Source: an uncultured beta proteobacterium
GTDB lineage: Bacteria; Pseudomonadota; Gammaproteobacteria; Burkholderiales; Burkholderiaceae
Length of the DNA: 64,000 nucleotides
Direction of reading: 5' to 3'
Assembly: GCA_903875135.1 (NCBI GenBank)
Contig: CAIQUZ010000037.1
Coordinates: 19,606 to 83,605 of the forward strand
The notes under the pieces were generated by a model. That model had not been told where the DNA came from and made no database searches. It saw only the letters and a program-made list of their open reading frames with translations. The position numbers and the translations under genes are program-made. Of this stretch, positions 2,964 to 45,135 are shown one piece after another (within the stretch, counting starts at the first letter, position 1; each line of letters begins with the position of its first letter).

Positions 2964-2991
2964 CCGTGAATTATGGCAGATGAAAGGGTTT

Positions 2992-3684: not shown

Positions 3685-3686
3685 GA

Positions 3687-4535: not shown

Positions 4536-5662
4536 GATTGATCCGTGATATTCGATGGTTTTTGCATAAAACGATCTTTGATAATGCCAACAATACCTTT
4601 AGGCAGATATAAAGTGACTACAACAAATAATCCACCTAAGATAAACAACCAATATTCTGGTGCTAGGCCGGTAAAGATGGTTTTAGCACCATTCACAACA
4701 AAAGCGCCAACAATAGGGCCAATTAAGGTCGCACGACCACCTACGGCCACCCAAACAGCTAACTCAATAGAGTTGGCAGGAGACATCTCTCCAGGGTTAA
4801 TAATACCAACTTGTGGAACATACAAAGCACCAGCAATACCACATAGAAAAGCAGAAAAAGTCCAAATAAACAATTTGTATCCAAGCGGGTCATAACCAGA
4901 AAACATCACACGATTCTCAGCATCACGAATCGCCATACACACCCTACCCAATTTAGACTGAACAATATATCGACAAACGATAAATGATAAGAGGAGTGCT
5001 GTAAAGCTAGCTAAAAAAAGGACCACACGCGTTGAGGGTTGGGTAATAGAAAAACCTAAAATTCTTTTAAAGTCAGTAAACCCATTATTCCCTCCGAAGC
5101 CTGTTTCGTTTCTAAAGAAAAGTAACATCGCTGCATAGGTAAATGCTTGGGTAATAATCGACAGATAAACGCCTTTAATTCTGGATCTAAAGGCAAAAAA
5201 CCCAAAAACAAATGCAATCAAACCGGGGATCAATAAAATGAATAAGAGCACTAACGGAAAATGATTCGTCCCCTCCCAGAACCAAGGTAATTGTTTCCAA
5301 TCAAGGAAAACCATAAAGTCGGGTAATTCTGAGTGATATACGCCCTCTGTGCCAATCGATCGCATCAAATACATGCCCATGATGTATCCACCAATCGCAA
5401 AAAATAAACTATGACCAAGACTTAAGATCCCACAAAATCCCCAGACAAGATCCAGAGCCAAAGCCGCAATAGCAAAGCACATGATCTTGCCAAAGAGTGT
5501 CAAAGAATAGGCGGACAAATGAAAGAAATTGCCCTCAGGTATAAAGAGAGCACAGAGCGGAACCAAAATATAAAAGGCTATGGCAAGCAAAATTAAACAC
5601 TTCCACCAAGTTTTTGACAGAATCGATTGTTGGGCTGGTAAATCAATATTAAAAGCTGTCAT
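4532..5662 (-). CDS. urtC: Urea ABC transporter permease UrtC (likely start ATG 5662)
   Basis: ALDLVWGFCGILSLGHSLFFAIGGY, ELPDFMVFL, FRNETGFGGNNGFTDF motifs; start lies 1 nt after the urtB stop. Confidence 0.95.
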   Translation of the reverse strand: MTAFNIDLPAQQSILSKTWWKCLILLAIAFYILVPLCALFIPEGNFFHLSAYSLTLFGKIMCFAIAALALDLVWGFCGILSLGHSLFFAIGGYIMGMYLMRSIGTEGVYHSELPDFMVFLDWKQLPWFWEGTNHFPLVLLFILLIPGLIAFVFGFFAFRSRIKGVYLSIITQAFTYAAMLLFFRNETGFGGNNGFTDFKRILGFSITQPSTRVVLFLASFTALLLSFIVCRYIVQSKLGRVCMAIRDAENRVMFSGYDPLGYKLFIWTFSAFLCGIAGALYVPQVGIINPGEMSPANSIELAVWVAVGGRATLIGPIVGAFVVNGAKTIFTGLAPEYWLFILGGLFVVVTLYLPKGIVGIIKDRFMQKPSNITDQS

Positions 5663-5663
5663 A

Positions 5664-7295
5664 TTAATTTTCTGCACTTCTACCCTTGAGGGCAAACATG
5701 CCTTGTGGGCGTTTTTGGATAAATAAAATAATCATGACGAGTAAACCAATCTTCGTCAGTACAGCCCCCATAAATGGCTCACTAAATTTACTCAAAATAC
5801 CCAAACCAAATGAACCAATAATGGTACCCGCTAGTTGTCCAACACCCCCAAGAACAACCGCCATAAATGAGTCAATAATATAGGACTGACCTAGGTCAGG
5901 ACCCACATTACCAATTTGAGATAAGGCACAACCACCTAAGCCAGCAATCCCTGCTCCAAAGGCAAATGCATAACTATCTACTCGGCGGGTTTTTACACCA
6001 ACACAACTTGCCATTGATCGATTTTGCGTGACCGCTCTTACAAAAAGACCCATTCTAGTTTTATTGAGAACTAACCAAGTCATAAAAACAATGGCTATAG
6101 CAAAGAAAAAGATTATTAAGCGGTTATAAGGTATTAGCAGTCCTGGAAAGAAATCTTGCAAAGGCGAAAAAGAACCACTCATCCATGATGGGTTACCGAC
6201 CTCCACATTCTGAGCACCAAAGACAACCCGAACAGCTTGCATCATTAACAAGCTCACCCCAAATGTTGCTAGAAGCGTTTCCAATGGGCGGCCATAGAGA
6301 TGGCGTAAGACTAAAAATTCCAAAATCAGACCAACAACTGCAGCCGATACAAAAGCGGCCGGAATCGCAAAAATTAAATAATAATCCTGATACTGCATGA
6401 AAAACGATCTAAAAATCGTCTGCACGATAAAGGTGGAGTATGCTCCCACCATTAAAAATTCACCATGAGCCATATTAATGACTCCAATTAATCCATAGGT
6501 AATCGCTAACCCAAGTGCGGCTAGCAATAAAATACTACCCAAGCTTAAGCCTGTAAAAATATTAGAAACAACTTCAGCCCGAAAACGGCGAGATTTAAAT
6601 TCATTGAGAGCCAACTCGATGGCTGGGAGAAGACTTTTATCTTTTTCAACGAAATTACCGGAGTCGTCTTTTTTCATTAAGTTCGCCAAAAAATTTTGTG
6701 CGCCCAATAAACTGGAGTTACCCAAAAGTTTTAGTAACTCTCGTTTTTTTGTTGCGTCTGCAGTTGCATAACTGACCATTGCATCTAAAGAAGCTAATTG
6801 CTTTTTAAGATGAGGATCTGTTTCAATCTCATATGCTTTTTTAATCAGCTCAGGCTTAATCTGACTAACATCATCGGATAAAGTATTCATCGCCTGAGTA
6901 CGAATCAGAAGATCTTTGGATAACAATTTATATTGACTAACGGCGGCTTCAATGTCAGATCGAATACTATTGTTTAATGTCGGTGACTCCAGTTTAGCCT
7001 CATCGACTGTTACGGTTATATTAGTAATGGCGTCCACATAAGCGTTTTTTACCTTCAGAACGACTAACTGATCAGTAGTCAAAAATACATTTTCATCTTG
7101 AAGAGCAAAGAAAATATTGGAAGCAATTTCAGGAGGTGCATCGACAACCTTTGCGACGGTCGATTGCTTCAGAGAAAAATCTTCCCCAAACAGATTTTTA
7201 AGATCCGCTTGAGAAAGATTGGATGCTAATACATAACTACTACATATAGTACTAATCAAAAAGCCAGATAATAATTTAAGCACAAGAATATTCAC
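5664..7295 (-). CDS. urtB: Urea ABC transporter permease UrtB with N-terminal periplasmic extension
   Basis: GLSLGSILLLAALGLAITYGLIGVINMAHGE, IIDSFMAVVLGGVGQL, IQKRPQGMF. Confidence 0.95.
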   Translation of the reverse strand: MNILVLKLLSGFLISTICSSYVLASNLSQADLKNLFGEDFSLKQSTVAKVVDAPPEIASNIFFALQDENVFLTTDQLVVLKVKNAYVDAITNITVTVDEAKLESPTLNNSIRSDIEAAVSQYKLLSKDLLIRTQAMNTLSDDVSQIKPELIKKAYEIETDPHLKKQLASLDAMVSYATADATKKRELLKLLGNSSLLGAQNFLANLMKKDDSGNFVEKDKSLLPAIELALNEFKSRRFRAEVVSNIFTGLSLGSILLLAALGLAITYGLIGVINMAHGEFLMVGAYSTFIVQTIFRSFFMQYQDYYLIFAIPAAFVSAAVVGLILEFLVLRHLYGRPLETLLATFGVSLLMMQAVRVVFGAQNVEVGNPSWMSGSFSPLQDFFPGLLIPYNRLIIFFFAIAIVFMTWLVLNKTRMGLFVRAVTQNRSMASCVGVKTRRVDSYAFAFGAGIAGLGGCALSQIGNVGPDLGQSYIIDSFMAVVLGGVGQLAGTIIGSFGLGILSKFSEPFMGAVLTKIGLLVMIILFIQKRPQGMFALKGRSAEN

Positions 7296-7309
7296 TGAAT
7301 AATCAGTGC

Positions 7310-8569
7310 TTATTTCACCTCATCTGGTTTACCTTCATTACCAGCAATGAATGGCGACCAAGGTTTCGCACGAATTGTTGTTGGGGTTTTCCAAACAACA
7401 TTAAACTGACCATCCGCTTTTACTTCACCAATCATGACAGGCTTATACAAGTGATGGTTATTACCCATCTCTAATGTAAACCCACTTGGTGCCGCCACTT
7501 TTTGACCATACATCGCTTTTCTAACCGCATTGACTTCAGTTGTTCCAGCTTTTTCAACTGCAGCCTTCCACATCTTCATACCAACAACAGTAGCTTCCAT
7601 TGGATCATTCGTCAGAGGCTTACTTGCCGTTGGTAAATTTTTAGATTTTGCATAAGCCGCCCACTCAGTCTTAAATGCATCATTGGCTGGATTTTTAACA
7701 GACATAAAATAATTCCATGCAGCAAGGTGTCCTACGAGTGGCTTTGTATCAACACCACGGAGTTCTTCTTCACCCACTGAGAAAGCTACTACTGGAACAT
7801 CTTTAGCCTTTAAGCCTGCATTGCCAAGCTCTTTGTAAAATGGCACGTTAGAGTCACCATTAATGGTGGAAATCACAGCTGTTTTACCACCTTGCGAGAA
7901 TTTTTTGACATCAGCAACGATGGTTTGATAATCAGAATGACCAAATGGTGTGTATTTCTCATCAATATCCTTCTCATCAACACCTTTTGATTTCAGGAAA
8001 GCTCTGAGAATCTTGTTGGTTGTTCTTGGATATACATAATCAGTACCTAATAGTACGAAACGCTTTGCACCACCACCCTCTTTACTCATTAAATACTCTA
8101 CAGCAGGAATCGCCTGTTGATTCGGAGCTGCTCCTGTATAAAACACATTCTTGGACATTTCTTCACCCTCATACTGCACAGGGTAAAACAGTAAACCATT
8201 GAGCTCTTCAAACACAGGAAGAACTGACTTACGTGATACCGATGTCCAGCAACCGAATACTACATCAACCTTATCTTTTGTTAATAATTGACGAGCTTTT
8301 TCTGCAAATAGTGGCCAATTAGACGCGGGATCAACCACCACAGGCTCTAATTTACGCCCCATAATTCCACCAGCCTTATTAATAGCCTCTATCTGCATGA
8401 GAGCTACATCTTTTAAAGCCGTCTCAGAAATCGCCATTGTGCCGGATAAAGAGTGCAAAATACCTACCTTAATCGGCGCCTTTGACTGTGCAATGGTTAG
8501 GTTTGAAAAACCAATCGTAGCTATTGCAGCACTAATGGCGGTTAATTTTAAAATTGATCTACGTTTCAT
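7310..8569 (-). CDS. urtA: Urea ABC transporter substrate-binding protein UrtA
   Basis: VGILHSLSGTMAISE, FGCWTSVSRKSV, FYPVQYEGEE, GTDYVYPRTTN. Confidence 0.96.
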   Translation of the reverse strand: MKRRSILKLTAISAAIATIGFSNLTIAQSKAPIKVGILHSLSGTMAISETALKDVALMQIEAINKAGGIMGRKLEPVVVDPASNWPLFAEKARQLLTKDKVDVVFGCWTSVSRKSVLPVFEELNGLLFYPVQYEGEEMSKNVFYTGAAPNQQAIPAVEYLMSKEGGGAKRFVLLGTDYVYPRTTNKILRAFLKSKGVDEKDIDEKYTPFGHSDYQTIVADVKKFSQGGKTAVISTINGDSNVPFYKELGNAGLKAKDVPVVAFSVGEEELRGVDTKPLVGHLAAWNYFMSVKNPANDAFKTEWAAYAKSKNLPTASKPLTNDPMEATVVGMKMWKAAVEKAGTTEVNAVRKAMYGQKVAAPSGFTLEMGNNHHLYKPVMIGEVKADGQFNVVWKTPTTIRAKPWSPFIAGNEGKPDEVK

Positions 8570-8796: not shown

Positions 8797-9261
8797 CTAT
8801 TTAAGCCGATCATTAGCTAACTGTGTAGCCTTAACAATTCCGGAATATCCTGTGCAACGACAGAGATTTCCAGACAACTCATTACGAATTTGACTCTCTG
8901 AATTACATTTTTCTCGAATTATCATGTCTCTAACGGTGATGAGCATTCCGGGCGTACAAAAACCACATTGCAAGCCATGCGCTTCAGAAAAACATTCACG
9001 AATCACTTTCATCTTATGATCATCTTCAAAACCTTCAATCGTTTGAACCGACATACCAGATACGGAAGCAGCTAAAGTAATACAGGAGCGTATTGGTTCA
9101 TCATTGACCAAAACGGTACAAGAACCACAGACACCTAATTCACAAGCTAAATGAGTACCGGTAAGATGAAAAGTATTGCGAAGAAGATCAGCTAGCGTCA
9201 TTCGATCATCTATCTCTGTTTGAAAATATTGATGATTGACTTGAAGAGAAATTGAACTCAT
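8797..9261 (-). CDS. Molybdenum hydroxylase small subunit (2x[2Fe-2S], CoxS/XdhC-S like)
   Basis: CELGVCGSCTV...SC and QCGFCTPG...NLCRCTGY. Confidence 0.93.
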   Translation of the reverse strand: MSSISLQVNHQYFQTEIDDRMTLADLLRNTFHLTGTHLACELGVCGSCTVLVNDEPIRSCITLAASVSGMSVQTIEGFEDDHKMKVIRECFSEAHGLQCGFCTPGMLITVRDMIIREKCNSESQIRNELSGNLCRCTGYSGIVKATQLANDRLK

Positions 9262-10106
9262 TTTTTTAATGCCTCCATAACCGCTTTTTTTACAATAGAT
9301 CGATGCAAATTAAATTCATAAGATGATGACAGATGAAATGTGTTTTCAAGAAGATCACTGTCCAATAGATCATTCAAGTCTTTATCGAGATCAGCATTTT
9401 TGATGTTTGCTGAGGAGAGATACTTCGATAAGTGGGGTAATAAAACCGGCTTATCTCCTGCCGCACCTAAAATAGCATTAAAAATTCTCAACTCAGGATC
9501 AATAACAATTGCAGCTATGGAGTGTGCAAACTCTCCAACCTTATGACAAAACTTAACATAAGACCACTTAGCTTTTTCTGATAAAAAAGGTACGAAAACT
9601 CCTTTGACCAAATCAGTTTCTTTTAAACTCGTTTGCATGAGCCCGCACTGAAAATCTCCAATGGGCGTTTCTATCTCTTCAGCATGAGTCTTAATCATCA
9701 CACTTGCGCCAAGCGCTAGAAGCGCAGTGGGCCAATCAGCAGCAGGATCCGCATTGACGATACTACCACCTATGGTTCCTTTATTTCTTACCCCACGATA
9801 CGCAATACCTTGTGCGACGTGCTGAAGATATCCATGCGTCGGATCCTCAATCTTGCCATCCTCAATCATCGCATGCGTAACACCAGATCCTATAAAAAAA
9901 CGTTCTTTCGTCGCAAAACATTTTTTCAAATCTGGCAGTTGAGATATATCAATGACCTCTTCACTAAAAATTAAACGAAGACTCATCATCGGCATTAAGG
10001 ATTGACCCCCAGCCATATACTTAGCATTACCTTCATGAGTTTGATTGAGTGAGATAGCCTCATCGATGCCATTCACGATGTGATAATGTACCTTACCTAA
10101 TTTCAT
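9258..10106 (-). CDS. Molybdenum hydroxylase medium subunit (FAD, CoxM-like)
   Basis: AGGQSLMPMMSLR, VRNKGTIGGSIVNADPAADWP. Confidence 0.92.
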   Translation of the reverse strand: MKLGKVHYHIVNGIDEAISLNQTHEGNAKYMAGGQSLMPMMSLRLIFSEEVIDISQLPDLKKCFATKERFFIGSGVTHAMIEDGKIEDPTHGYLQHVAQGIAYRGVRNKGTIGGSIVNADPAADWPTALLALGASVMIKTHAEEIETPIGDFQCGLMQTSLKETDLVKGVFVPFLSEKAKWSYVKFCHKVGEFAHSIAAIVIDPELRIFNAILGAAGDKPVLLPHLSKYLSSANIKNADLDKDLNDLLDSDLLENTFHLSSSYEFNLHRSIVKKAVMEALKK

Positions 10107-12475
10107 GACATCACCTCAGACTTTTTAGTCAATTTTTCTCTAGCCTGCATAATTGCAGCGTAAACCCTCGGTGGAGTCATTGGCGTTTCATTCAATTCTG
10201 CACCTATCGATTTAAGTGCATCACGAATGGCATTGGCTATAGCCGCTGGTGGAGCAATAGCTCCACCTTCTCCCATTCCCTTCATGCCATATTCCGTATG
10301 CTCTGATGGTGTAACCATATGGCCTATTTTTATTGCCGGTATTTCAGTTGCTCCCGGAATTAAATAATCAGCTAAGGTAGTTGCTAAGGGTTGGCCAGTT
10401 GCATTATATGGAATCTCTTCATAGAGAGCAGTACCTATCCCTTGAGCAATACCACCAACAATTTGACCATCGACAATTAAAGGATTTACCACCGTGCCAC
10501 AATCTTCAACAATTGCGTAATCTAATATATCCACTTTTCCAGTATCAACATCAACAGCCACAACTGCGACTTGTGTTGCATAGGTAAATACTCCAGTATC
10601 AATCTTGGGTTCATAAGTCACAAGAACTTCAAGTAAAGGATCTAGACCTTTTGGCAAAGCCTCCTGCCTTAAATGAGCTATTCGAGCCACTTCTTTTAAT
10701 GCAATGGAACTTGTGGGACCATGAATCAAGTCATCTTCAAAACGTAAATCTACTAATGAACAACCGAGTAAATGCGCGGCAATGATGCCAATTTTACTTT
10801 TGAGAAGTCGGCAGGCTTTGGCAACTGCACCACCAGCCATGACCATACTTCTTGAGGCAAAGGTTCCCATCCCAAACGCACTAGTCTGAGTATCTCCATG
10901 TCGAATACTCACATGAATTGGATCAATTCCTAGCTCCTCACAGGCAACCTGAGCGAGAGAAGTTTCCATACCTTGACCATGAGAAACAATCCCTACTGAA
11001 ATAATCAATGAGCCATCTGTCATCATCCGAGCTGATGCCGTCTCATAGCCTGGAATCACAGGAACTCCGCGAGAAACCCATTCGCCACAACCATGCGCCG
11101 TCTGCTCTGTAAAAGAAGCAAACCCGACACCAATCAATCGACCATCAGATTCGCCTTTTTGCTGACGCAATCGAATCTGCTTGAATTCAATCAATTCTGC
11201 AGCGCGACGAACTGATTCTGCATAGTTACCACTATCAAATAATAGATTGGTGATGTTGCGATACGGCATCGCTTCTTCTGGTACCATATTTTCCATACGA
11301 ACTTCGTAAGGTTCACGGCCAACAGCATGAGCAATTTCATCAATAATTCTTTCGATTGTAAAACACGCTGCCGGTCTTGCAACACCGCGATAGGCTCCAA
11401 TTGGTGATTTATTAGTAGCTACTGTAAATGTTTTAACGCGATAGTTTGGAACGACATATGGTCCTGGAATATTCCTAGAAGCCATGCCAGTCTCCATAAA
11501 AGGTCCATTCGGCCAATGCGAATAGGCGCCAGCATCCACATGAATATCGACATCTAGCCCTAGAATTTTTCCTTGAGAATCGGCGTACGCGGTCACTTTA
11601 TGATGATGTTCCCGGCAATGAATCGCCGTCATTAAATGCTCTCGCTTATCATCAATCCACCGTACGGGCTTTTTCAGTTTTAATGCTAATGCAACAACCA
11701 TTAACTCCTCAGGATAGAGCACTCGTTTAGCACCAAAGGCACCACCCATATCCGGTGTAATTAAGTGTAATTGGTTTTCATCAATACCCAAAGCTTGAGC
11801 CATTCCCACTCGAGTTTGGTGTGGGGATTGAGATCCAATGTAAACAACTAACTCATTTAAACGGTGATCCCACATTGCCAAAATAGCACGTCCCTCCAAA
11901 GGGGCAGCTGACTGTCGATTCATTTTAAAACTTCTTTCAATCGTGACAGTTGCCATTTGCTTTGCTGTCTCTATATCTCCATACTGATTGTGTTTAGAAA
12001 CATAAATATTGTCACCCCATTCATCACGAATTAAGGGCGAATCAGTCCGAGTTGCCTCTAATAAATCGACAACCGCTGGTAATTCTTCTATATCTACTAA
12101 AACAGAATCAGCTATATCTTCAGCGATAGATCGATTTTCTCCAATTGCCATTGCAATAGGCTCTCCGGCGAATCTTACCCGGTCAGTAGCTAATGCGGGG
12201 TGCTCAGAGTATTTGAAACCTTCAACCTTTGGAACTGCAATAATTGGCTTTACATTGGGAAAGTCACTTGCCTGAAAAACTTGATCTTTAAACTCCTCAG
12301 GTATTTGTAAACTCTTAATAATGCCGTGAGCATAAGAACTTCTTACAAAAGCAACATCAATAATCCCTGGAATCTGAATATCAGAAACAAATTGACCCTT
12401 GCCATGAAGATGACGAGCATCTTCTTTCCTTAATATTCTTGCCCCAACACCTTTACCTGGTTTATCCAATTTCAC
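10103..12475 (-). CDS. Xanthine-dehydrogenase-family molybdopterin large subunit (CoxL-like, not form I CODH)
   Basis: RKEDARHLHGKGQFVSDI, DMGGAFGAK, AYRGVARP, GQGMETSLAQ, GMGTFASRS, GQIVGGIAQGIG, KGMGEGG; the form I CODH motif AYxCSFR is absent. Confidence 0.93.
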   Translation of the reverse strand: MKLDKPGKGVGARILRKEDARHLHGKGQFVSDIQIPGIIDVAFVRSSYAHGIIKSLQIPEEFKDQVFQASDFPNVKPIIAVPKVEGFKYSEHPALATDRVRFAGEPIAMAIGENRSIAEDIADSVLVDIEELPAVVDLLEATRTDSPLIRDEWGDNIYVSKHNQYGDIETAKQMATVTIERSFKMNRQSAAPLEGRAILAMWDHRLNELVVYIGSQSPHQTRVGMAQALGIDENQLHLITPDMGGAFGAKRVLYPEELMVVALALKLKKPVRWIDDKREHLMTAIHCREHHHKVTAYADSQGKILGLDVDIHVDAGAYSHWPNGPFMETGMASRNIPGPYVVPNYRVKTFTVATNKSPIGAYRGVARPAACFTIERIIDEIAHAVGREPYEVRMENMVPEEAMPYRNITNLLFDSGNYAESVRRAAELIEFKQIRLRQQKGESDGRLIGVGFASFTEQTAHGCGEWVSRGVPVIPGYETASARMMTDGSLIISVGIVSHGQGMETSLAQVACEELGIDPIHVSIRHGDTQTSAFGMGTFASRSMVMAGGAVAKACRLLKSKIGIIAAHLLGCSLVDLRFEDDLIHGPTSSIALKEVARIAHLRQEALPKGLDPLLEVLVTYEPKIDTGVFTYATQVAVVAVDVDTGKVDILDYAIVEDCGTVVNPLIVDGQIVGGIAQGIGTALYEEIPYNATGQPLATTLADYLIPGATEIPAIKIGHMVTPSEHTEYGMKGMGEGGAIAPPAAIANAIRDALKSIGAELNETPMTPPRVYAAIMQAREKLTKKSEVMS

Positions 12476-33194: not shown

Positions 33195-34595
33195 TTACTC
33201 ATTAAAAAAAGAAAGTATCCACTCGTTCGTTTTTAGCGGTAAGTGTGGATTCTTTTCTAACTGCTCGCCCAAAGACACAACAGATTTTTGTAGGTTGGGT
33301 GCTAAATCTTTAGATAATAAGGAGATCTTTTCTAAGACTGTATGACGTTCTAATGGTCTTGCAGAACTCCCTAGAGCTGCCTCACAAAACTCAGAAATCT
33401 TGTCTCCATTCTTTAATTCAATGGTAACTTTAGCAGGGCGATCATAAGGCCAAGGACGTACATCTTTCATTTCTTGCATCACCACTTTATTTCTGACATT
33501 GGCAATGAGAGAATTCGACATACTTTCATGTAAAAAATTTTCTGTAGCGCTTGCACCGTTAATAATAGTGGCAGCTACAGCATGAGGGATCGAAAACTTC
33601 GCCGCCAGGGTTGTGACAGGATTGACATTATTAAAGTTCATTCCCATTTTAGAAACTTCTATGAGTACAGAGTGAATCGTATCTCCTCCGCGAAGATTGG
33701 GATGTGCTTTAAAGATGGTTTCTATGGCTTCCATGGATGCATGCGCATGATGACAAGAACCATACAATTTATGATAGCCAGCAGTAATCGTCCATTCTGT
33801 ACCCAAGTCCATACAAAGCTGATCTGGCTTCGAAGTTGCTCCAAAACCCATCTGATAAACATCATATGGGCCAGTGGGTGTTCCGTAAATATTAGCTTGA
33901 GCCATCTCGCAAGCAAAGTGTCCTAACCAAGCGCCAGCTGCAGGCCAAGCATTTCGAATTAAGGCCCCTTGAATCGGATGACTATAAGGCCCAGGTGAAA
34001 CCATTGTGCAAGCACCAGTCAATGCATTCATGAAAAGTGTTTTATCAAATTTCATTAGAGCAGCATATCCAGCAGCCGCACAAACTGTATTAAATACCCC
34101 ATGAGGGTGCAACCTTGGTAAAGTCTCAGGCCAAGACCTTGCAAAGCGCGTTCCAATTTCATAAGCAACAACTACTGCCCTTAACATCTCTTGTACAGAT
34201 ATATCATTCGCTTGAGCAGCAGCTAAAATAAGGGGTTGACTGAGCGCCCCTGGATGGACTGCAGTTCTAGTGTATCCATCATCTAACTCGTTCCAAGTAA
34301 TCGCTAATCCATTAGCAAGCGCCGCATTCATTAAAGAAGTCTTTGGCCCACCCTTACGAAAAACTGTTGCTGTCTCATCACTTTTTTGACCCAATAATTG
34401 GCTGTGATAAGTATTTACTTCAGGTTCATTAGATGCAGATAAGGTAGCAGCAATGTTGTCACCCAAAATCAAAACAGCGTGTTGTATCACCTGATTTGGA
34501 ATATCCTCATAGCGAAGACTCGTTGCCCAATCTGATAACTTTAATAAATTTTCTGCAACACTATTTTTAATATCGAGCTGATTAACTACATTCAT
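33195..34595 (-). CDS. MmgE/PrpD-family protein (not clearly canonical PrpD); start ATG 34595 overlaps the upstream TGA
   Basis: ALANGLAITWNELDDG...VHPG, AVVVAYEIG, YHKLYGSCHHAHA, AKFSIPHAVA. Confidence 0.85.
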   Translation of the reverse strand: MNVVNQLDIKNSVAENLLKLSDWATSLRYEDIPNQVIQHAVLILGDNIAATLSASNEPEVNTYHSQLLGQKSDETATVFRKGGPKTSLMNAALANGLAITWNELDDGYTRTAVHPGALSQPLILAAAQANDISVQEMLRAVVVAYEIGTRFARSWPETLPRLHPHGVFNTVCAAAGYAALMKFDKTLFMNALTGACTMVSPGPYSHPIQGALIRNAWPAAGAWLGHFACEMAQANIYGTPTGPYDVYQMGFGATSKPDQLCMDLGTEWTITAGYHKLYGSCHHAHASMEAIETIFKAHPNLRGGDTIHSVLIEVSKMGMNFNNVNPVTTLAAKFSIPHAVAATIINGASATENFLHESMSNSLIANVRNKVVMQEMKDVRPWPYDRPAKVTIELKNGDKISEFCEAALGSSARPLERHTVLEKISLLSKDLAPNLQKSVVSLGEQLEKNPHLPLKTNEWILSFFNE

Positions 34596-36982
34596 ACTGT
34601 AACTTTTCTGAGTGCATGCCAAATTTTATTCGAGGTAAATGGCATTTCTACACCCTTCACACCAATCGAGCCCAGAGCATCGATCATGGCGCTGGTGATT
34701 GCCGCAGGGGCGCCAATAGTTCCCGATTCGCCACAACCCTTAACCCCTAAAGGGTTGTGTGTACATGGCTGAGATTCATCTGCCTCAGAAATAAAATCTG
34801 GCAATATGTCGGCCCTAGGCATCGCATAATCCATAAAAGAACCCGTCATGATTTGACCAGAGTCCGGCTCATAAACGGCACTTTCAAATAGAGCTTGGCC
34901 AATACCCTGAGCTATTGCGCCATGCACTTGCCCTTCAACAATCATTGGATTAATCACTGTTCCTACATCATCGATGGCTATGTAAGATAACAATTTCGTC
35001 ACACCAGTTTGTGGATCAATTTCTATTTCACAAGCTTGTGCTCCATTGGACCATGTTAAATTAGGTGGATCAAAAAAAGCATTTTCGTGGAGAACCGGCT
35101 CCATTCCAATCGGCAAATTATGAGCATAGGTAGCAGCGCGTGAAACCTGATACCAATCTAATTTTTCTTGCGTTGTTTTGCAAACGAAATGACCTAGGTT
35201 ATCAATAATCTGATGTTCCACATCGGCAACATCACAAGCAAGAAGGTGAGCCGCAAGTAATTTTGATTTATTCAAAATTTTCGTGCAAGACATCGTAATC
35301 GCTCCACCAGCAATCACCATTGATCTTGATCCAAAAGTTCCAGTTCCATATGGAACTCTGCCTGTATCCCCTTCAACTAACTCAATCATAGATAAAGGTA
35401 GCCCTATATGTGAAGCAATGACTTGCGGAAATGTCGTCGCATGTGCTTGACCATGACTGTGCGTACCACACATTAAAAGAATACTTCCATCGGCAGATAC
35501 TCGGATATCGGCCGAATCAAAAAAACCTGCCCGAGCGCCAAACATTCCGGCATATTTAGAAGGTGCGACTCCAGAACTTTCTAGAAAATAACAAATACCA
35601 AAACCGCGTATCATGCCATTTACTTTTGAAAGTGCACGACGTTTTTCAAAACCAGCAAAATCAGAAACAACAAGCGCTCTGTCAAATAGCCGTTGAAAAT
35701 CTCCACTATCGTAAATTGGACCTAACGGTGTAGAGTAAGGCATTTCACTCGATTTGATGAAATTTTTACGACGCAGTTCCATGCGGTCCATACCCGTTTG
35801 CACCGCAGCTTCTTCGATTAATCGCTCTAATACAAAACATGCTTCAGGACGCCCTGCGCCACGATACGCATCCGTTGGAACCGTATTGGTGAACATCGCA
35901 TCAACCTCTGCGAAAACTGCAGGAATCTTATAAGGACCAGATAAAACCGCAGTGTAAACCGTTGTTGGAACTGCCGCCCCAACAGTAGATATGTATGCCC
36001 CAACAGCAGCATAGGTCTTCACTCGAACACCTAAAATATAACCCTTGTCATCAAGAGCCATTTCCGCGGTGGTCATATGATCACGAGCTTGATAGTCACT
36101 AATAAATGCTTCACTTCTCGTTGAAGTCCACTTTACGGTGATCTTTAGTTTCTTACAAGCCCAGGCTAAAAGTGTTTCTTCAGGATATAACTTACCCTTC
36201 GTACCAAAACCACCACCAACATCAGGTGCAATTACACGTATTGAGTTTTCCGGTAGATTTAATTGCTCCGATGTGAGCTTGCGAATATGGTGCGGAACTT
36301 GTGTGGCGGACCAAATTGTGAGCTCATGACCATCATCTCCAAGAGAGGGAGATACCTGTGCAACAACAGCTCTTGGTTCGATGGCAGCACAAACAATCCG
36401 ATGATTTTTAATTTCTACACGAATCTGGTGCGCCGCCTTTGCAAAGGCAGCATCAACAGGCTCTTTAGAGCCACGGTGAAATCTTACACAAAGATTATTT
36501 GGCGCTTGTGAATGAAGCTGTGGGGCAGTTGCAAGTGCTGCTTTCTCAACATTGACTACTGCATCTAATACTTCAAAATCTACTTCTATCAATTCAGTAG
36601 CATCAATAGCTTGATGAACAGTCTTGGCGATGACCATCGCCACTATTTCACCAACGTGACGCACGCGATCCACCGTCATGGAATATCGTGGAGGTTCATT
36701 CATTTGCGTGCCATTTGCCCCAGGAATCATCCATAGTGGCGTCATCTTACCGACACCATCATTAAATAAGTCTTCCCCAGTTAACACAGCAATTACGCCT
36801 AGAGACATTTGCGCCGCAGAAACATCAATGCTCTTAATAAGTGCATGCGCGTGAGGCGATCTTAAAAAAGCACAGTAATATGTGTTTTCAGGAAGAATAT
36901 CGGCGACAAATTGACCACGTCCTTTTAATAGACGATTATCTTCTCTTCTTAAAACCGTTTTACCAATTCCTTGTGGATGCAT
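34592..36982 (-). CDS. Xanthine-dehydrogenase-family molybdopterin large subunit (form II CoxL-like)
   Basis: RREDNRLLKGRGQFVAD, DVGGGFGTKG, AYRGAGRPEA, HSHGQAHAT, GTFGSRS, GQVHGAIAQGIGQ, KGCGESG. Confidence 0.93.
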   Translation of the reverse strand: MHPQGIGKTVLRREDNRLLKGRGQFVADILPENTYYCAFLRSPHAHALIKSIDVSAAQMSLGVIAVLTGEDLFNDGVGKMTPLWMIPGANGTQMNEPPRYSMTVDRVRHVGEIVAMVIAKTVHQAIDATELIEVDFEVLDAVVNVEKAALATAPQLHSQAPNNLCVRFHRGSKEPVDAAFAKAAHQIRVEIKNHRIVCAAIEPRAVVAQVSPSLGDDGHELTIWSATQVPHHIRKLTSEQLNLPENSIRVIAPDVGGGFGTKGKLYPEETLLAWACKKLKITVKWTSTRSEAFISDYQARDHMTTAEMALDDKGYILGVRVKTYAAVGAYISTVGAAVPTTVYTAVLSGPYKIPAVFAEVDAMFTNTVPTDAYRGAGRPEACFVLERLIEEAAVQTGMDRMELRRKNFIKSSEMPYSTPLGPIYDSGDFQRLFDRALVVSDFAGFEKRRALSKVNGMIRGFGICYFLESSGVAPSKYAGMFGARAGFFDSADIRVSADGSILLMCGTHSHGQAHATTFPQVIASHIGLPLSMIELVEGDTGRVPYGTGTFGSRSMVIAGGAITMSCTKILNKSKLLAAHLLACDVADVEHQIIDNLGHFVCKTTQEKLDWYQVSRAATYAHNLPIGMEPVLHENAFFDPPNLTWSNGAQACEIEIDPQTGVTKLLSYIAIDDVGTVINPMIVEGQVHGAIAQGIGQALFESAVYEPDSGQIMTGSFMDYAMPRADILPDFISEADESQPCTHNPLGVKGCGESGTIGAPAAITSAMIDALGSIGVKGVEMPFTSNKIWHALRKVTV

Positions 36983-37108
36983 GTAATTCTCTCAATTAAT
37001 AATGGGACCTAAAAATATGTTAGCTTAATAACCTAAAGATTCAAAATAATGTTATCTTAGTTTTTATTTCCTCACAAGGAATTCCAAAATTTATAAATCG
37101 GAGCTTTT

Positions 37109-38077
37109 ATGAACTTCAAGAAAAACTGTTTAATCTCTTTAATCATATTGTTGCTAGCTAGTTTTTCGTCTTTAAGTATGGCCCAACAAAAAATGAAAAT
37201 GGGGCTTTTTATTGCATCTTCAGCTCTCCCATATTTTATTGCTAAAGAAAGAGGTTACTTTGCTGCAGAGGGTCTTGACGTTGAGGGAATACCCTTAGCA
37301 ACACAACCTTTGGTTGTTCAAGGAATTGTTACTGGTGATTTAGATGCTGGCTCTAACCTGCTCTCACTAGAAGGTGCAAATATCAACGCCTTGAGACCAG
37401 ATACATTGAAGTACATCTCTTTAAATTGTCAAAATGTAAAATATCAACTCGAAGCTTACGTCGTTCCAGTCAATAGCACTATTAAAACCTTAGCTGAGTT
37501 GAAGGGCAAACGCATTATGTCTGCCCCAGGCCCGGGTAACCTTTTTGTGGCAAAAGGCGTGCTTAAAGCAGTTGGTCTTGATGAAAAAGATTATCAGATG
37601 CAAGAACAACAAATGAGCGTTCACATTGGTGGTCTTCAGTCTGGTCAATTTGATGCCGCATATACTCTTGAACCGATCGTGAGCATGATGGTTTCTCAAG
37701 GAGTTGGTCGTAAACTCGAAAGTGGTGTAATTGCAAAATACATGCTTGGCAGACCCGATGCCTGTGCGGTACTTGGTGGTGGCGTTCTCAGTTCTAAATT
37801 TATCAAAGAATATCCACAAGCGGCAGAACGATTTGCTAGAGCATGGGCCAAGGCATTAAATGACGGTAATAACGATCCTAAGGCTCGCGATCTCCTAGTG
37901 AAGTATATGAATACATCAGCAAGCATTGCTCAAACTGTACCGCTATCTCACTACAACATGATCCGTGATTTAAAACCTCAAGATCTTGCTGACTTTCAGA
38001 ACTTAATTGATCAGGCAACAGCTTATGGGTTGGTCAAAGAAAAAATTGATGCTAAATCATTTTTAAAAGTCTATTAA
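37109..38077 (+). CDS. NitT/TauT (NMT1/SsuA-like) ABC substrate-binding protein
   Basis: Signal peptide; LPYFIAKERGYFAAEGLDVE, LAELKGKRI, GQFDAAYTLEP. Confidence 0.88.
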   Translation: MNFKKNCLISLIILLLASFSSLSMAQQKMKMGLFIASSALPYFIAKERGYFAAEGLDVEGIPLATQPLVVQGIVTGDLDAGSNLLSLEGANINALRPDTLKYISLNCQNVKYQLEAYVVPVNSTIKTLAELKGKRIMSAPGPGNLFVAKGVLKAVGLDEKDYQMQEQQMSVHIGGLQSGQFDAAYTLEPIVSMMVSQGVGRKLESGVIAKYMLGRPDACAVLGGGVLSSKFIKEYPQAAERFARAWAKALNDGNNDPKARDLLVKYMNTSASIAQTVPLSHYNMIRDLKPQDLADFQNLIDQATAYGLVKEKIDAKSFLKVY

Positions 38078-38083
38078 TATCCG

Positions 38084-38857
38084 ATGAGTTTGATGCCGTA
38101 TAAAAAATATCTGGAGCCTCTAGTTCCCTTAATTGGGGCTCTAGTTTTTGTCTTAATCTGGTGGCTTAGCACCACGTTAAAATTGGTAGATCCTTTCTTA
38201 TTGCCCTCTCCACTCGCCGCAGGAAAAGCAATGTGGACCGGCATAACCAGTGGGACCTTATCTCTCGATATGATCATCACGATCCGTCGAACGATTTATG
38301 CCTTTTTAATTGCTGTGGTGATCTGCGTTCCACTTGGACTTATTTTAGGTAGTTCTGAGCGTCTCTATCGATCCTGCGAATTTGTGATTGATTTCTTTCG
38401 CTCAACGCCTGCTTCAGCTTTATTCCCCCTCTTTTTAGTCATATTAGGTGTTGGAGAAAATACCAAAATTGCAGTAGCCGCTTTTGGCGCCGGACTTTTG
38501 ATTTTGTTCAATACCGCATACGGAGTCATGAACGCCAGAAAAGTACGGCAAGCTGCAGCAAGGGTCATGGGGGCCTCAAGCCTGAAGATTCTATATGGTG
38601 TAACTCTACTTGAATCACTCCCTCAAACATTTGTAGGAATGCGTTCCGGAATTTCCTTTTCACTAGTGATTGTGATTGTTGCAGAGATGTTTATCGGCTC
38701 TACAGATGGCTTAGGCCAACGTGTGATTAATGCTCAAATGATTTTTAATATGCCGGAAATGTACGCTACGATTTTTAGTGCCGGAGCATTAGGTTACGGA
38801 TTAAATCTTCTCTTCATTCTCGCGGAAAGACACTTCGTCCATTGGGGTGGAAAATAA
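38084..38857 (+). CDS. NitT/TauT ABC permease
   Basis: FLLPSP, DFFRSTPASALFPLF, LESLPQTFVGMR, IVIVAEMF. Confidence 0.9.
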   Translation: MSLMPYKKYLEPLVPLIGALVFVLIWWLSTTLKLVDPFLLPSPLAAGKAMWTGITSGTLSLDMIITIRRTIYAFLIAVVICVPLGLILGSSERLYRSCEFVIDFFRSTPASALFPLFLVILGVGENTKIAVAAFGAGLLILFNTAYGVMNARKVRQAAARVMGASSLKILYGVTLLESLPQTFVGMRSGISFSLVIVIVAEMFIGSTDGLGQRVINAQMIFNMPEMYATIFSAGALGYGLNLLFILAERHFVHWGGK

Positions 38858-38881
38858 ACGTGTATTTCCAAATTTAATTAA

Positions 38882-39649
38882 TTGATTATGACAGCACATA
38901 TCCAAATTCGTGGGTTGAGTAAAACTTTTGCTGGGCAAACGCTATATTCAAATTTTAATCTCGATTTTTCTCATGGGAAAATCACATCGATCTTTGGTCC
39001 GAATGGTTGCGGAAAATCGACGTTGATTAATATGATTTCTGGACTAACCCCAATGGATGCTGGAGAAGTTCTGTTTGATGGTAAAACCCTAGCTCAAACG
39101 GTTATCGGCTACGTCTTTCAAAACTACCGAGACGCTCTTTTCCCATGGAAAAAAGCCATCGACAATATCAAATATCCTCTCCAAATTGCAAAACAGTCTA
39201 TCGGTGAGATTGAAGCTAGAACCCAAGAATTAATTCAGTCGTTTGATGTCCGCTTTGATCTCAACCGATATCCCTACGAATTATCAGGTGGACAGCAACA
39301 ATTAATTTCCATTATGAGAGCTCTAGCTCCAAATCCAGAAGTACTTTTTTTGGATGAGCCATTTTCTGCACTCGATTATGAAATGACCCTGTTTATGCGG
39401 GATAAACTACAGGCGATTTTTGAAGCGACTAAAACCACCATGATTCTTGTCTCTCATGATCTCGATGAAGCAGTGTATTTATCAGACCACATTCTGATGT
39501 TGACTCGAAGGCCTACTCAAATCGCGCGTGAAATTGAATTTAATGCGCCAAGACCCCGTCAACCCCTCACTCTCACATCAGAACTATTTAATCAAGTAAA
39601 AGGTCAATGTCTTGAAATCTTCCAAAAAGAAATCAAAATAATCGATTAG
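38882..39649 (+). CDS. NitT/TauT ABC ATPase
   Basis: GPNGCGKST, VFQNYRDALFPW, YPYELSGGQQQ, LDEPFSALD, VSHDLDEA. Confidence 0.93.
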   Translation: MIMTAHIQIRGLSKTFAGQTLYSNFNLDFSHGKITSIFGPNGCGKSTLINMISGLTPMDAGEVLFDGKTLAQTVIGYVFQNYRDALFPWKKAIDNIKYPLQIAKQSIGEIEARTQELIQSFDVRFDLNRYPYELSGGQQQLISIMRALAPNPEVLFLDEPFSALDYEMTLFMRDKLQAIFEATKTTMILVSHDLDEAVYLSDHILMLTRRPTQIAREIEFNAPRPRQPLTLTSELFNQVKGQCLEIFQKEIKIID

Positions 39650-39682
39650 AATTAATTCATATTTTAAAAAAGGAGATGATCT

Positions 39683-40159
39683 ATGAGCATCCAAGTATCG
39701 ATGATCATTAATGGCCAATCTGTTCAACATGAAGTGGAAGAGCGAACACTCTTGGTAAATTTTATCCGCGATTATTGTCGCTTAACAGGCACTCATGTTG
39801 GCTGCGATACAGCACAATGCGGTGCGTGCACAATCCATTTAAATGGTCGAGCCATCAAAAGTTGCAGCATTCTAGCGATGCAAGCAGAAGGTGCAACTAT
39901 TACAACAATTGAAGGAGTTTCATCGGATGATCAATTACATCCAATGCAAGAAGCCTTTAAAACACATCATGGGCTACAGTGTGGCTATTGCACTCCCGGA
40001 ATGATTATGAGTGCGATTGACCTTGTCAATCAATTTCCTAATCCCAGTAAGGAACTCATCCGGGAACAACTCGATGGCAACTTATGCCGTTGCACTGGTT
40101 ATCACAATATCGTAATTGCCATTCAAGAGGCGGCCAAAGTTATGAGCCCTTCTAACTAA
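39683..40159 (+). CDS. Molybdenum hydroxylase small subunit (2x[2Fe-2S], CoxS-like)
   Basis: [15 protein letters not shown]...[19 protein letters not shown]. Confidence 0.94.
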
Positions 40160-40176
40160 ATTTCTCGGAGCGATTT

Positions 40177-40971
40177 ATGTATCCATTTTCATTTCATCAC
40201 ACTCAAAAAATTACTGACACTGTCTCTTTAAAAAAAGAATCTCCAGAGGGAAAATATATCGCTGGTGGTCAAAGTTTAATTGGGGTAATGAAGCTAAGAC
40301 TTGATAAACCGTCCGAATTAATTAACCTAGGATCCATTCCTGAACTTACCGGCATTTGTGTAGATGGGAAGACCTTAACAATCGGAGCAATGGCGAGACA
40401 TGCCGAAGTTGCCGCATCTGCTGATGTGAAAAATTGCATCCCTGGTCTATCCCAACTCGCGGGCCTCATTGCCGATAGAATGGTGCGCAATATGGGGACA
40501 ATCGGCGGCTCTGTCGCTAACAATGATCCTTCTGCGGATTATCCTGCTGGCTTGTTGGGATTAAATGCCACCATCATTACCAATCAACGTGAAATCAAAG
40601 CGGATGATTTTTTTCTCGGGATGTTTGAAACCGCTCTAGAGCCAAGTGAATTGATCCAATCGATTCGTTTTACAGCACCGATTCAATCTGCCTATGCTAA
40701 ATTCAAACACCCCGCCTCTAGATACGCCGTCGTCGGTGTTTTTGTCGCTCAATTTCCGGGCGAAGTCAGAGTGGCTGTCACAGGAGCCGGCGCATCAGTT
40801 TTCCGACTCACAGAAGTTGAAAAAGCTCTTTCTAACAACTTCTCTGCCAGTGCATTAGATCCAATACATATTTCTGCTGATGGGCTTAACTCAGACTTTT
40901 TTGCAGATTCAGAATACCGAGCCCATTTAATCAAATTAATGGCAATACAAGCAGTTAACCAAGCACAATAA
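40177..40971 (+). CDS. Molybdenum hydroxylase medium subunit (FAD, CoxM-like)
   Basis: [48 protein letters not shown]. Confidence 0.93.
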
Positions 40972-40988: not shown

Positions 40989-42083
40989 ATGTCAATTGAT
41001 GTCGTTAAAGTTGAAATTAAAAGTGTATCGGATGCCTCAGGGCTATTACAACATATAGAATCTGGAAGATTTAAGGCTGATGACGTCATCGCTATTATTG
41101 GAAAAACTGAGGGTAATGGTGGAGTAAATGATTTCACAAGAATCTTATCAGATCATGCTTTTCGAGACGTTTTATTGAAACACGGCACGCGGACTACAGA
41201 GCAGATTCGGGAAATCCCGATGGTTTGGTCAGGTGGTTGTGATGGCGTCATCACACCACATGCCACTATTTTTACTCAAGTTAACGATACTTCAAGTTCA
41301 AAAGAAAGTCGTCTAGTAATTGGTACAGCACTTAGCCCGCGTATTTATCCAGAAGATATTGGTCGTTTGTCAATGGTAGAAAAAGTGCGTCAAGGTGTGC
41401 TGTTAGCAATGAAAAATGCAGGGATTGATGATCCAAAAGATGTGCATTACGTGCAGACAAAAACACCACTGCTGACCATTGAATCTGTCCTTGATGCCAA
41501 ATCACGTGGAAAGACTCTAGCCTGCGAAGTTCACGACTCCATGGGTGTTTCCAATGGCACTACGGCCCTAGGAATTGCGGTTGCACTAGGCGAAATCTCA
41601 ATGCCAACAGAAGAAGATATCTGCGAGAATCACGCCTTGTTTTCTTCAGTAGCATCCTGCTCTTCTGGCGTTGAATTAGATTTCGCACAAATTGTTTTAC
41701 TCGGCAATAAAACTGGCGCAGGAGGAAAATTTAGGATCGGTCACGGCATTATGAGAGATGCTATTGATATCGATGGTATCTATGATGCGATTCGGTCCGC
41801 TGGCTTAACCTTACCTGAGCGCCCCAGAGCAAGCGACTTAAACGGCAAACTAGTTAACTGCTTCATTAAATGTGAGGCGGATCAAACTGGTAAGCTTCGT
41901 GGTCGTCGACAAATTATGTTAGATGACTCCGATGTGCATCATCATCGACACTCTAAAGCTGCCGTTGGTGGAGTAGCTGCTGCCGCGATTGGTGATCCCG
42001 CTGTCTTCGTATCTGTTGATGCTATGCACCAAGGTCCGCACGGTGGCGGTCCCGTTATCGCGATTGTTGATTTGGGGACTTAA
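40989..42083 (+). CDS. bar: Ring-opening amidohydrolase of the AtzD/barbiturase (Toblerone-fold) family, barbiturase-like
   Basis: [40 protein letters not shown] (Asn189 where cyanuric acid hydrolases have Arg), [36 protein letters not shown]; collinear end to end with Rhodococcus barbiturase as I recall it. Confidence 0.88.
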
Positions 42084-42092: not shown

Positions 42093-42572
42093 TTATTGAT
42101 AGATTTTCTGATCAAAGAAACTCATACCTGCAATATAGCGGCTACCATCAGACATGTCCGGGAGTGGTCCCTTCTCGATTTTTCCTTCAAAGGTTAATTC
42201 GAGTTGGACACCGCTTGGATCATAAATAAATAGTTGCCAAATCGTCGTGTTCGGCACTAAAAATTCACGAAAAGGTAATTTCATGTCAATAAATTTTTGA
42301 CGGTACTCATGGTAACCCGAGCAAGAAAATGAGATATGATCAATCGCTGCAGTCCCTAATACTGTCTTACCATCTTCACCAAGCGCTGGTCCACCAGCGT
42401 AACAATGTAATATCGCTTGCCCACCAGGAATCGGAGCAGCAAGCCACGCTCCCGGAAAACCAAAGTCCGGACGATAAATATCAATCAAACCTAATACCTT
42501 AGTATAAAAATCTTTAGTTGCCTCTAAATTATTCGTTTTAACTGCAATATGAAACAAACCATTCGTAATCAT
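42093..42572 (-). CDS. VOC / glyoxalase-family metalloprotein
   Basis: FHIAV...FYTKVLGL, GAWL, LHCY, IDHISF, YDPSGVQLEL (His/His/His/Glu metal set). Confidence 0.88.
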   Translation of the reverse strand: MITNGLFHIAVKTNNLEATKDFYTKVLGLIDIYRPDFGFPGAWLAAPIPGGQAILHCYAGGPALGEDGKTVLGTAAIDHISFSCSGYHEYRQKFIDMKLPFREFLVPNTTIWQLFIYDPSGVQLELTFEGKIEKGPLPDMSDGSRYIAGMSFFDQKIYQ

Positions 42573-42585
42573 GAACTATTCCTGT

Positions 42586-42969
42586 TTAAATTTTATCGAT
42601 CAAACTAACATGGGCTGAAACAATTCTCCAACCTTCAGGTGTCCTTACCCAAGTTTGCGATTGACGCCCCAATTTTCCTGGAACAGTATCTCTTTCAAAT
42701 AAGGTATTCGCTGTTGCCAAGTCATTTCCAAAAGTAGTAATTACTGTTTTACTGATACTTCTTAATAAACCTTTCGACGGTCTTGCGGCTCGAAAAGCTG
42801 CTATTTCGTCAAAACCATATAAGTTTTCATTCATGCCATAACGGATAACTAATGGATTATTCCAAAATGAGTTATCTAAAACATCAATCTTATTGTGAAT
42901 CAAGGCGTCCTCATATTGATCAAAAAGAGCTTGAACTTCTGCGTGGATATTAGGGATGTTAATTTGCAT
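42586..42969 (-). CDS. AtzH/HpxZ-like (DUF3225, NTF2-like) protein
   Basis: FDQYEDALIHN...FW...IRYG..ENLYGFDEIAAFRAAR...GRQSQTWVR.PEGWRIVSAHVS. Confidence 0.9.
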   Translation of the reverse strand: MQINIPNIHAEVQALFDQYEDALIHNKIDVLDNSFWNNPLVIRYGMNENLYGFDEIAAFRAARPSKGLLRSISKTVITTFGNDLATANTLFERDTVPGKLGRQSQTWVRTPEGWRIVSAHVSLIDKI

Positions 42970-44259: not shown

Positions 44260-45135
44260 TTATTTAAATAACTCATCAAGGTGTTTCTCGTAATCGTAAT
44301 AATTGATACTTTCGTATAACTCATTTCTCGTTTGCATTTGCCCAATCAAATTTTTTTGTGTTCCCTCAGACCGAATGGTTTGATAAACATGCTCTGCTGC
44401 TTTATTCATCGCTCTAAAAGCTGATAATGGGTAAAGTGCCATGCTGACTCCAACTGACCTCAATTCATCGATAGTGAACAATGGCGTTGATCCAAACTCA
44501 GTAATATTGGCTAAAACTGGAACTTTGGTCTTTTCGACAAATTGTTGATATTGACCTAGTTCAGTAACTGCTTCTGGAAACAACATATCTGCACCCGCCT
44601 CAACATAAGCAAGCACTCTATCTATGCAAGCATTGATACCTTCTGCTGCTAAAGAGTCGGTTCTTGCCATCACCACAAAATCCTCACTCGACTTAGCATC
44701 AATAGCTGCTTTGATACGATCGACCATTTCTGCACAACTCACAATTTGTTTATTGGGTCGATGACCACAACGTTTAGCACCAACTTGATCTTCAATATGA
44801 ATCGCTGCCACCCCAGCTTTTTCTAATGAACGAACCGTCCTAGCCACATTAAATGCCGATGACCCAAATCCTGTATCCACATCAACTAGCAAAGGTAAAG
44901 TACAAATATCGGTGATTCTTCTGGCATCAATCAGCACATCTTCTAAGTTAGAAATTCCAAGATCAGGCAAGCCTAAAGATCCCGCAGACACTCCCCCGCC
45001 AGATAAATAAATAGCTTTGTAACCAGCTCGCTGAGCCAGTAACGCATGGTTACCATTCACTGCACCAATGACTTGAAGTGGTGATTCATTCAAAATTGCT
45101 TGACGAAACAAACTACCCGGAGATACTCGACTCAT
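44260..45135 (-). CDS. prpB: 2-methylisocitrate lyase
   Basis: [54 protein letters not shown]. Confidence 0.92.

Follow-up and report, generated by a model that had tools for sequence, protein, structure and literature searches.

The classical oxidative route of pyrimidine breakdown runs through uracil/thymine dehydrogenase (EC 1.17.99.4), barbiturase and ureidomalonase (EC 3.5.1.95). To our knowledge the genes for the first and the last of these enzymes have no assignment to sequences, and searches of the literature for ureidomalonase, uracil dehydrogenase and barbiturases of Proteobacteria yielded no relevant paper. The barbiturase of Rhodococcus erythropolis JCM 3132 (Bar, EC 3.5.2.1; structures 5HWE, 5HXU, 5HXZ and 5HY1) has the Toblerone fold and belongs to Group VI of the family, for which the signature at AtzD positions 195/321/325/345/346 is Asn/His/Lys/Val/Ser or Ala (Peat 2013, PMC3758960). 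The cyanuric acid hydrolases (CAHs) of the same fold, among them AtzD, TrzD and the Moorella enzyme (4BVQ, 5T13, 6BUM), are marked by Arg at AtzD positions 194 and 324 and by the motif SGGxExQGPxGGGP (PMC9118981). In AtzD the Ser-Lys dyads are K42/S85, K162/S233 and K296/S344, accompanied by R54, and the metal ligands are the side chain of Glu298 and the carbonyls of Ala347, Gln350, Pro352 and Gly355. In the Moorella CAH structure Glu351 forms a salt bridge with the domain-2 Arg193, and Gly348 lies 3.2 Å from C5 of bound barbiturate. The assayed barbiturases named in the literature that we searched are actinobacterial, and no assayed member of the proteobacterial clade described below was found there.

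The hydrolase gene and its family

The gene studied here encodes a barbiturase-type ring-opening amidohydrolase and lies on the forward strand at 40989..42083 of the window, by which we mean the whole 64,000-nucleotide stretch of DNA, from an uncultured beta proteobacterium, that was analysed. It begins with an ATG at 40989 and stops at 42083, giving an intact frame for a protein of 364 aa; an AGGA sequence lies 8 nt upstream of the start, and the reverse strand of 40989-42083 is full of stops. A scan for promoters and terminators returned sites that were not enriched over shuffled sequence. The protein gives a full-length family match to PF09663 (464 bits, E 4e-139, residues 5-361) and scores 470 bits with TIGR02714. 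In HMMER alignments to PDB chains its best solved relative is the Rhodococcus barbiturase 5HWE (497 bits, E 3e-148), with the CAHs at 301 bits or less (Moorella CAH, the best of them, at 301 bits). A Foldseek search likewise has 5HXZ and 5HWE at the top, at an identity of 63-64% as measured in the Foldseek alignment, and the CAHs next at 38-42%; all matches at E<1e-24 are family members. These scores bear out the original prediction, made from the letters alone, of a barbiturase-type hydrolase of the Toblerone fold. The AlphaFold2 model submitted to Foldseek was built from a 29-sequence alignment and has a pTM of 0.70 and a pLDDT <50 over residues 289-354 (domain C). It was used for the Foldseek ranking alone. 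Because of the low pLDDT over that segment, nothing said below on the position of Asp344 and the histidines is drawn from it; these residues are placed by homology to the published CAH structures.

Catalytic and specificity residues

Three Ser-Lys dyads are present in the protein (K39/S81, K158/S225 and K294/S342). It also has R51 and R320 and, in the metal loop, E296, A345, Q348, P350 and G353, and every one of the residues named is invariant in the proteobacterial clade to which it belongs. The fold, the catalytic Ser/Lys set and the metal loop are common to the Rhodococcus enzyme and to the CAHs (~38-45% identical to the hydrolase), and the protein is predicted to be a catalytically competent barbiturase-type cyclic-amide hydrolase.

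Asn189 (codon 41553..41555, + strand) replaces the domain-B Arg of the CAHs (AtzD Arg194/195). As the original prediction had it, this residue lies in an SNG triplet (188-190), which aligns opposite S-R-G of Moorella CAH and has the Asn of Rhodococcus barbiturase at its centre. Residue counts were made in 200 close relatives, mostly from Alpha- and Betaproteobacteria (120 database matches at 76-97% identity, taken from at least 8000, and 80 genome loci, taken from at least 525 relatives). Position 189 is Asn in 199 of the 200, as it is in the Bar relatives from actinobacteria; the references (AtzD, TrzD, R. leguminosarum and A. caldus) have Arg there. In domain C the segment [13 protein letters not shown] (residues 316-328; 41934..41972, + strand) includes the Bar signature residues His319 and Lys323, which map to AtzD Thr321 and Arg325 following PMC3758960. 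It also includes His318 and His321, which are specific to the proteobacterial clade and are replaced by Trp and Gln, respectively, in the actinobacterial relatives. Closer to the C-terminus, SVDAMHQGP (residues 342-350; 42012..42038, + strand) contains the active-site Ser342, the Bar-type Val343 and the clade-specific Asp344 and Met346, and the metal-binding loop begins within it (Ala345, Gln348, Pro350). The strings that had been read in this part of the protein are all in place (the domain-C segment at 316-328, VSVDAMH at 341-347 and VDAMHQGP at 343-350), and the Rhodococcus strings given for comparison, vhwhrqikscvgg and vsvsaah, are those found in the PDB-chain alignment.

The hydrolase therefore agrees with the Group VI signature at four of its five positions (Asn189, His319, Lys323 and Val343). 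At the fifth (AtzD 346) the hydrolase and all 200 close relatives have Asp344, and the actinobacterial relatives have Ala (Nonomuraea and Embleya) or Ser (P0122). Four more positions depart from the Group VI enzymes: 318 is His where they have Trp, 321 is His where they have Gln, 322 is Ser where they have Ile, and 346 is Met where they have Ala or Val. Among ~100 full-length family representatives the N-H-K-V combination is confined to two clades, the actinobacterial Bar clade and the proteobacterial one. Residue 189 and the C-terminal loop had both been called barbiturase-like; this is true of Asn189 and Val343 but not of Asp344 and Met346, which match neither the Gly and Glu of the CAHs nor the Ser/Ala and Ala/Val of the actinobacterial proteins. 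Neither CAH marker is present in the hydrolase, which has Asn189 and Lys323 at the two arginine positions and reads [14 protein letters not shown] in the motif region. Like the Rhodococcus enzyme it has lost the Glu that pairs with the domain-B Arg in CAHs, and the Arg193-Glu351 salt bridge of the Moorella protein is replaced by Asn189 and Met346.

Phylogenetic placement and distribution

Two trees, one of 101 sequences and a more careful one of 52, agree. The proteobacterial clade (28 sequences, including the hydrolase) has support of 99/98 and the actinobacterial barbiturase clade 100/97; the two are joined as sisters with 87/50, and together with a small divergent clade they are set apart from all CAH references (AtzD, TrzD-like, Rhizobium AtzD and the Acidithiobacillus group IV protein) with 100/100. 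The hydrolase thus lies outside the clade of the characterised Rhodococcus enzyme (Group VI) and in its sister clade, where it groups with freshwater Burkholderiaceae MAGs at 90-96% identity and is nested among Alphaproteobacteria at 72-80%. On its sequence it is classed as barbiturase-type and assigned to a sister clade that is uncharacterised and lies outside Group VI, from whose signature it departs at the fifth position. The original prediction had left a choice between a proteobacterial barbiturase and a sister clade of shifted specificity, and the sister-clade placement (99/98 against 100/97) upholds both alternatives as far as phylogeny goes. A shift in specificity is not a matter that sequence can settle, and the retention of four of five specificity residues and the molybdenum hydroxylase subunits encoded in the operon favour barbiturate.

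Database names point elsewhere. The NCBIfam equivalog NF052395, 'cyanuric acid amidohydrolase', gives the hydrolase 443 bits against a cut-off of 360, many close relatives are so named by JGI and UniRef, and an AtzH-like gene adjoins the hydrolase gene, all of which would fit a CAH that opens cyanuric acid to carboxybiuret. We nevertheless hold this function to be highly improbable, as both defining arginines are replaced (N189, K323), SGGxExQGP reads SVDAMHQGP, the protein is placed away from AtzD, TrzD and Rhizobium AtzD in the tree, and no BiuH, AtzE/AtzG or AtzF is found among the annotated neighbours. NF052395 was tested on P0122, L082:11989-13080, L086:262-1344 and window 40989-42083, and it gives 443-469 bits for barbiturase-type proteins and 372 bits, just passing, for the Acidithiobacillus protein, whose group IV signature is unlike that of CAHs or Bar (Peat 2013, PMC3758960). 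The highest of these scores, 469 bits, belongs to P0122, a near-copy of the Rhodococcus barbiturase (685 bits against 5HWE, and so effectively a Rhodococcus-type enzyme). Since the model passes P0122 as well as the hydrolase, its cut-off does not separate barbiturases from CAHs; NF052395 over-calls CAH, and the name 'cyanuric acid amidohydrolase' on close relatives is no evidence of their function.

The proteobacterial clade is large, with at least 525 relatives among the candidate stretches of a species-genome collection. At least 8000 candidates were scored in the protein database, every one of them significant, and the whole barbiturase group falls into essentially one full-length cluster at 50% identity. 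Neither the 28 genomes sampled from the same genus nor the 300 from the same family yielded a Bar-type copy, and four of them have CAH-like genes at 41-44% identity; the Bar-type gene is an accessory gene in its host genome. That genome measures 2.7 Mb, compared with 1.7-2.2 Mb for the sampled congeners, none of which has the gene, and the locus would seem to belong to an accessory catabolic island. Absence from so many sampled genomes could also be accommodated by a decayed or non-catalytic accessory gene on an acquired island. This is barely credible, however, for a gene with an intact frame and with all of its catalytic and metal-loop residues conserved, and which is 96% identical to its counterparts in three distinct MAG species that have this operon as well; such identity, with the intact frame and residues, indicates purifying selection.

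Clade signature and the tunnel mouth

Asp344, Met346, His319, His321, Lys323 and Val343 are each invariant in the 200 close relatives, and His318 is found in 198 of them, so the unusual residues are a signature of the clade and not a peculiarity of this one gene. The corresponding residues of Nonomuraea, Embleya and P0122 are Trp318, Gln321, Ile322, Ser/Ala344 and Ala/Val346; the actinobacterial side of this comparison consists of three or four sequences only, with P0122 standing in for the Rhodococcus enzyme. Within the proteobacterial clade 208 positions reach an invariance of 97% or more, and 159 of these are identical in all the actinobacterial relatives. Ten fixed differences separate the two clades, six of them in domain C, and positions 322, 344 and 346 differ as well, with variation on the actinobacterial side. 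The variant third domain that had been noticed in the sequence is real in this sense, but it is a modest variation and one that is clade-wide.

The residues at the tunnel mouth of Moorella CAH were mapped onto the hydrolase by the PDB-chain alignment, and what follows is placed by homology. Moorella Tyr186 corresponds to His182, which does not differ between the two barbiturase clades, and Lys187 to Asp183, which is not a fixed difference (it is Glu in Rhodococcus). The other three mouth positions do differ between the clades: Ala190 corresponds to Gly186 (Gly vs Asp), His323 to His318 (His vs Trp) and Glu351 to Met346 (Met vs Ala/Val). Arg193, which corresponds to Asn189, and Gly348, which corresponds to Val343 beside C5, show no difference between clades. 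The mouth differences would fit either a compensation in packing (Trp+Ala vs His+Met) or a retuned entrance.

Some of these residues sit awkwardly with barbiturate as the substrate. Asp344 stands where Ser or Ala would be expected, three of the five mouth positions are unlike those of the actinobacterial enzymes, and one would not expect an acidic side chain next to a substrate that is an anion. It is conceivable, though we doubt it, that the same fold and chemistry act here on another compound, such as 5-methylbarbiturate, a 5-hydroxy- or other 5-substituted barbiturate, or another trioxo/ureide heterocycle. The ring would be made by the neighbouring hydroxylase or imported directly, with Asp344, His318, His321 and Met346 adapting the pocket entrance. 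Asp344 lies at one of the specificity positions of Peat 2013 (PMC3758960), and the Foldseek listing gives a Frankia member of the family, PDB 5HY0, the title of orotic acid hydrolase. Set against this, Val343 (the residue beside C5 of barbiturate in the CAH complex), Asn189, His319 and Lys323 are unchanged, the shared 159 of 208 invariant positions leave much of the protein alike in the two clades, and the Trp+Ala/Val vs His+Met pairs at 318/346 could be the packing compensation mentioned above. The title of 5HY0 is also a hint, in its own right, of a third substrate class in the Toblerone fold. A bolder proposal, and in our judgement an unlikely one, is that His318, His321, Asp344 and Met346 together with His182 and Asp183 are no product of neutral drift. 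They would make up a new functional site where the pocket opens, whether as a gate, as an acid/base relay or by binding a second metal, and would retune the enzyme to a substrate other than barbiturate, either 5-methylbarbiturate derived from thymine or a ring supplied by HyuA/HyuB, deaminase and importer modules like those described below. Were it true, this widespread clade would represent a third class of activity in the Toblerone fold.

Operon structure and surroundings

The hydrolase gene is the last of six forward-strand genes that follow one another with gaps of 35 nt or less. The first three encode an ABC importer, namely its NMT1/THI5-type binding protein (37109-38077), permease (38084-38857) and ATPase (38882-39649). 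They are followed by genes for the [2Fe-2S] small subunit (39683..40159; PF01799, 111 bits) and the FAD-binding medium subunit (40177..40971; PF00941, 144 bits) of a molybdenum hydroxylase, the latter ending 17 nt before the hydrolase start. The molybdopterin large subunit of the hydroxylase is encoded on the reverse strand (34592..36982), divergent from the operon across a spacer of 126 nt; it has an AYRGAGRP motif and scores below every equivalog cut-off. An MmgE/PrpD-family gene (33195..34622, reverse strand; PF03972, PF19305) shares 31 nt (34592-34622) with the 3' end of the large-subunit gene, an overlap that suggests coupled expression of the two. A PrpB-type methylisocitrate lyase gene lies nearby (44260-45135), and it and the MmgE/PrpD-family gene might conceivably relate to a methylmalonate/propionate branch from thymine. 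The window holds two separate three-subunit molybdenum hydroxylases, at 8797-12475 and 34592-40971, whose large subunits are 33% identical and whose active-site loops read AYRGVARP and AYRGAGRP, respectively.

Downstream, and convergent with the operon, lies a pair of reverse-strand genes (42093..42969) that encode a VOC/glyoxalase-fold protein (42093-42572, ending 9 nt past the hydrolase stop) and the HpxZ/AtzH-like protein (42586-42969); the pair matches PF11533 with 184 bits and NF033625 with 186 bits against a cut-off of 135. A urease and a branched-chain-type ABC importer are encoded at 1-8569 of the window, the importer possibly being for urea, and a malonyl-CoA decarboxylase gene is present on another contig of the same genome. 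RutA was not found in this 93%-complete genome, nor was a dihydropyrimidinase above cut-off, which leaves the hydrolase locus as the one recognisable means of pyrimidine ring cleavage that was found.

Gene context in relatives

In the 80 related loci compared, the exact operon arrangement is common only to four closely related, near-identical MAG loci (L002-L005), and the VOC and HpxZ/AtzH-like pair is likewise linked to the hydrolase gene only in these four. Importer orthologues are much more constant companions, adjoining the hydrolase gene in ~45 of the 80 (binding protein ~42%, permease 63% and ATPase 59% identical), and a 473-aa amidase-signature enzyme follows the hydrolase in 35 of the 80. 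Such an order, with the amidase after a ring-opening enzyme, would be expected of a barbiturase and its ureidomalonase; an orthologue of this amidase was not found in the host genome, where the best match is 34% identical. A molybdenum hydroxylase lies within 10 kb in ~15 of the 80 loci, and the large subunit described here is 33-36% identical to those beside other Bar genes.

Two other layouts recur. One is an alphaproteobacterial module in which a LysR gene precedes HyuA-HyuB-hydrolase-NMT1 binding protein-ATPase-permease-473-aa amidase (L006, L007, L009, L020, L026, L046, L065, L069 and others), the HyuA-HyuB pair upstream of the barbiturase-type gene being of the ATP-dependent hydantoinase/oxoprolinase type. 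HyuA/HyuB genes and the second molybdenum hydroxylase of the window were considered as orthologues of those beside the alphaproteobacterial genes and were rejected, being only 28-36% identical. In the other layout (L043, L047, L048, L049, L074), cytosine-deaminase-like, ABC transporter and dihydropyrimidinase-like genes precede the hydrolase-amidase pair, and a 377-aa protein without an NCBIfam match is also encoded. Actinobacterial neighbourhoods are different again. In Embleya sp. NBC_00888 (L095:10956-11912 and L095:19039-23458) a gene of the amino-acid/carbamate-kinase family lies directly upstream of the Bar-like gene, and genes for a CN-hydrolase, CoxG and a 933-aa molybdenum hydroxylase subunit are found 7-10 kb downstream. 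This subunit, 8 kb from the Bar gene, is 36% identical to the one in the window and shares the YRGAGRP motif. No pathway neighbours were seen around the Bar-like gene of the Nonomuraea locus. The operon partners of the hydrolase studied here are the ABC importer and the hydroxylase subunits; in the two actinobacterial loci examined the neighbouring genes are others.

The company kept by the relatives bears on the substrate. In most of the 80 loci the importer is present and a hydroxylase is missing from the surrounding 10 kb, so what the hydrolase opens could be the very compound that is imported, and the partners of these relatives (importer, HyuA/HyuB, cytosine-deaminase-like and dihydropyrimidinase-like proteins, with a hydroxylase of the uracil type much rarer) lend further weight to a substrate other than barbiturate.

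Proposed pathway

The likeliest function of the hydrolase, and one that we consider probable, is the opening of the barbiturate ring in a pathway for the oxidation of imported pyrimidines. From its family, fold, catalytic residues, clade placement and operon structure, we infer the substrate, roles for the hydroxylase and the transporter, and candidates for the enzyme that takes ureidomalonate further, as follows. A pyrimidine, either uracil or thymine, would enter through the NMT1-type ABC importer, and the substrate is probably made in the cell, where the Mo/FAD/FeS hydroxylase would oxidise the pyrimidine to barbiturate. The three-domain Toblerone fold has a central pocket, in which a Ser-Lys dyad would attack a ring carbonyl of barbiturate, and the ring would be opened to 3-oxo-3-ureidopropanoate (ureidomalonate), as in EC 3.5.2.1. 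For the ureidomalonate step the HpxZ/AtzH-like protein, the VOC protein, a 344-aa hydrolase and a 773-aa amidase are candidates. Later steps would lead to urea and malonate, which may be met by the urease of the window and by the malonyl-CoA decarboxylase encoded elsewhere in the genome.

This scheme resembles the classical oxidative pathway in having a Mo/FAD/FeS hydroxylase and a barbiturase-type gene in one locus, with urease and malonyl-CoA decarboxylase available. It differs from it in lacking a recognisable ureidomalonase orthologue and in having the VOC and HpxZ/AtzH-like pair and a dedicated ABC importer attached, and its hydroxylase is a candidate for the dehydrogenase.

Significance

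Because its gene lies in an operon that also encodes an importer and subunits of an oxidising enzyme, the hydrolase probably serves in pyrimidine breakdown and is probably not a new kind of enzyme; the finding is sound rather than surprising, and its practical value lies in correcting annotation and in giving a handle on the hydroxylase gene. Surveys of cyanuric-acid and triazine degradation that rely on 'cyanuric acid amidohydrolase' names will overcount. The FeS and FAD subunit genes directly upstream of a barbiturase-type gene offer a direct, clonable candidate for uracil/thymine dehydrogenase, and a single assay in the proteobacterial sister clade would annotate thousands of genes.
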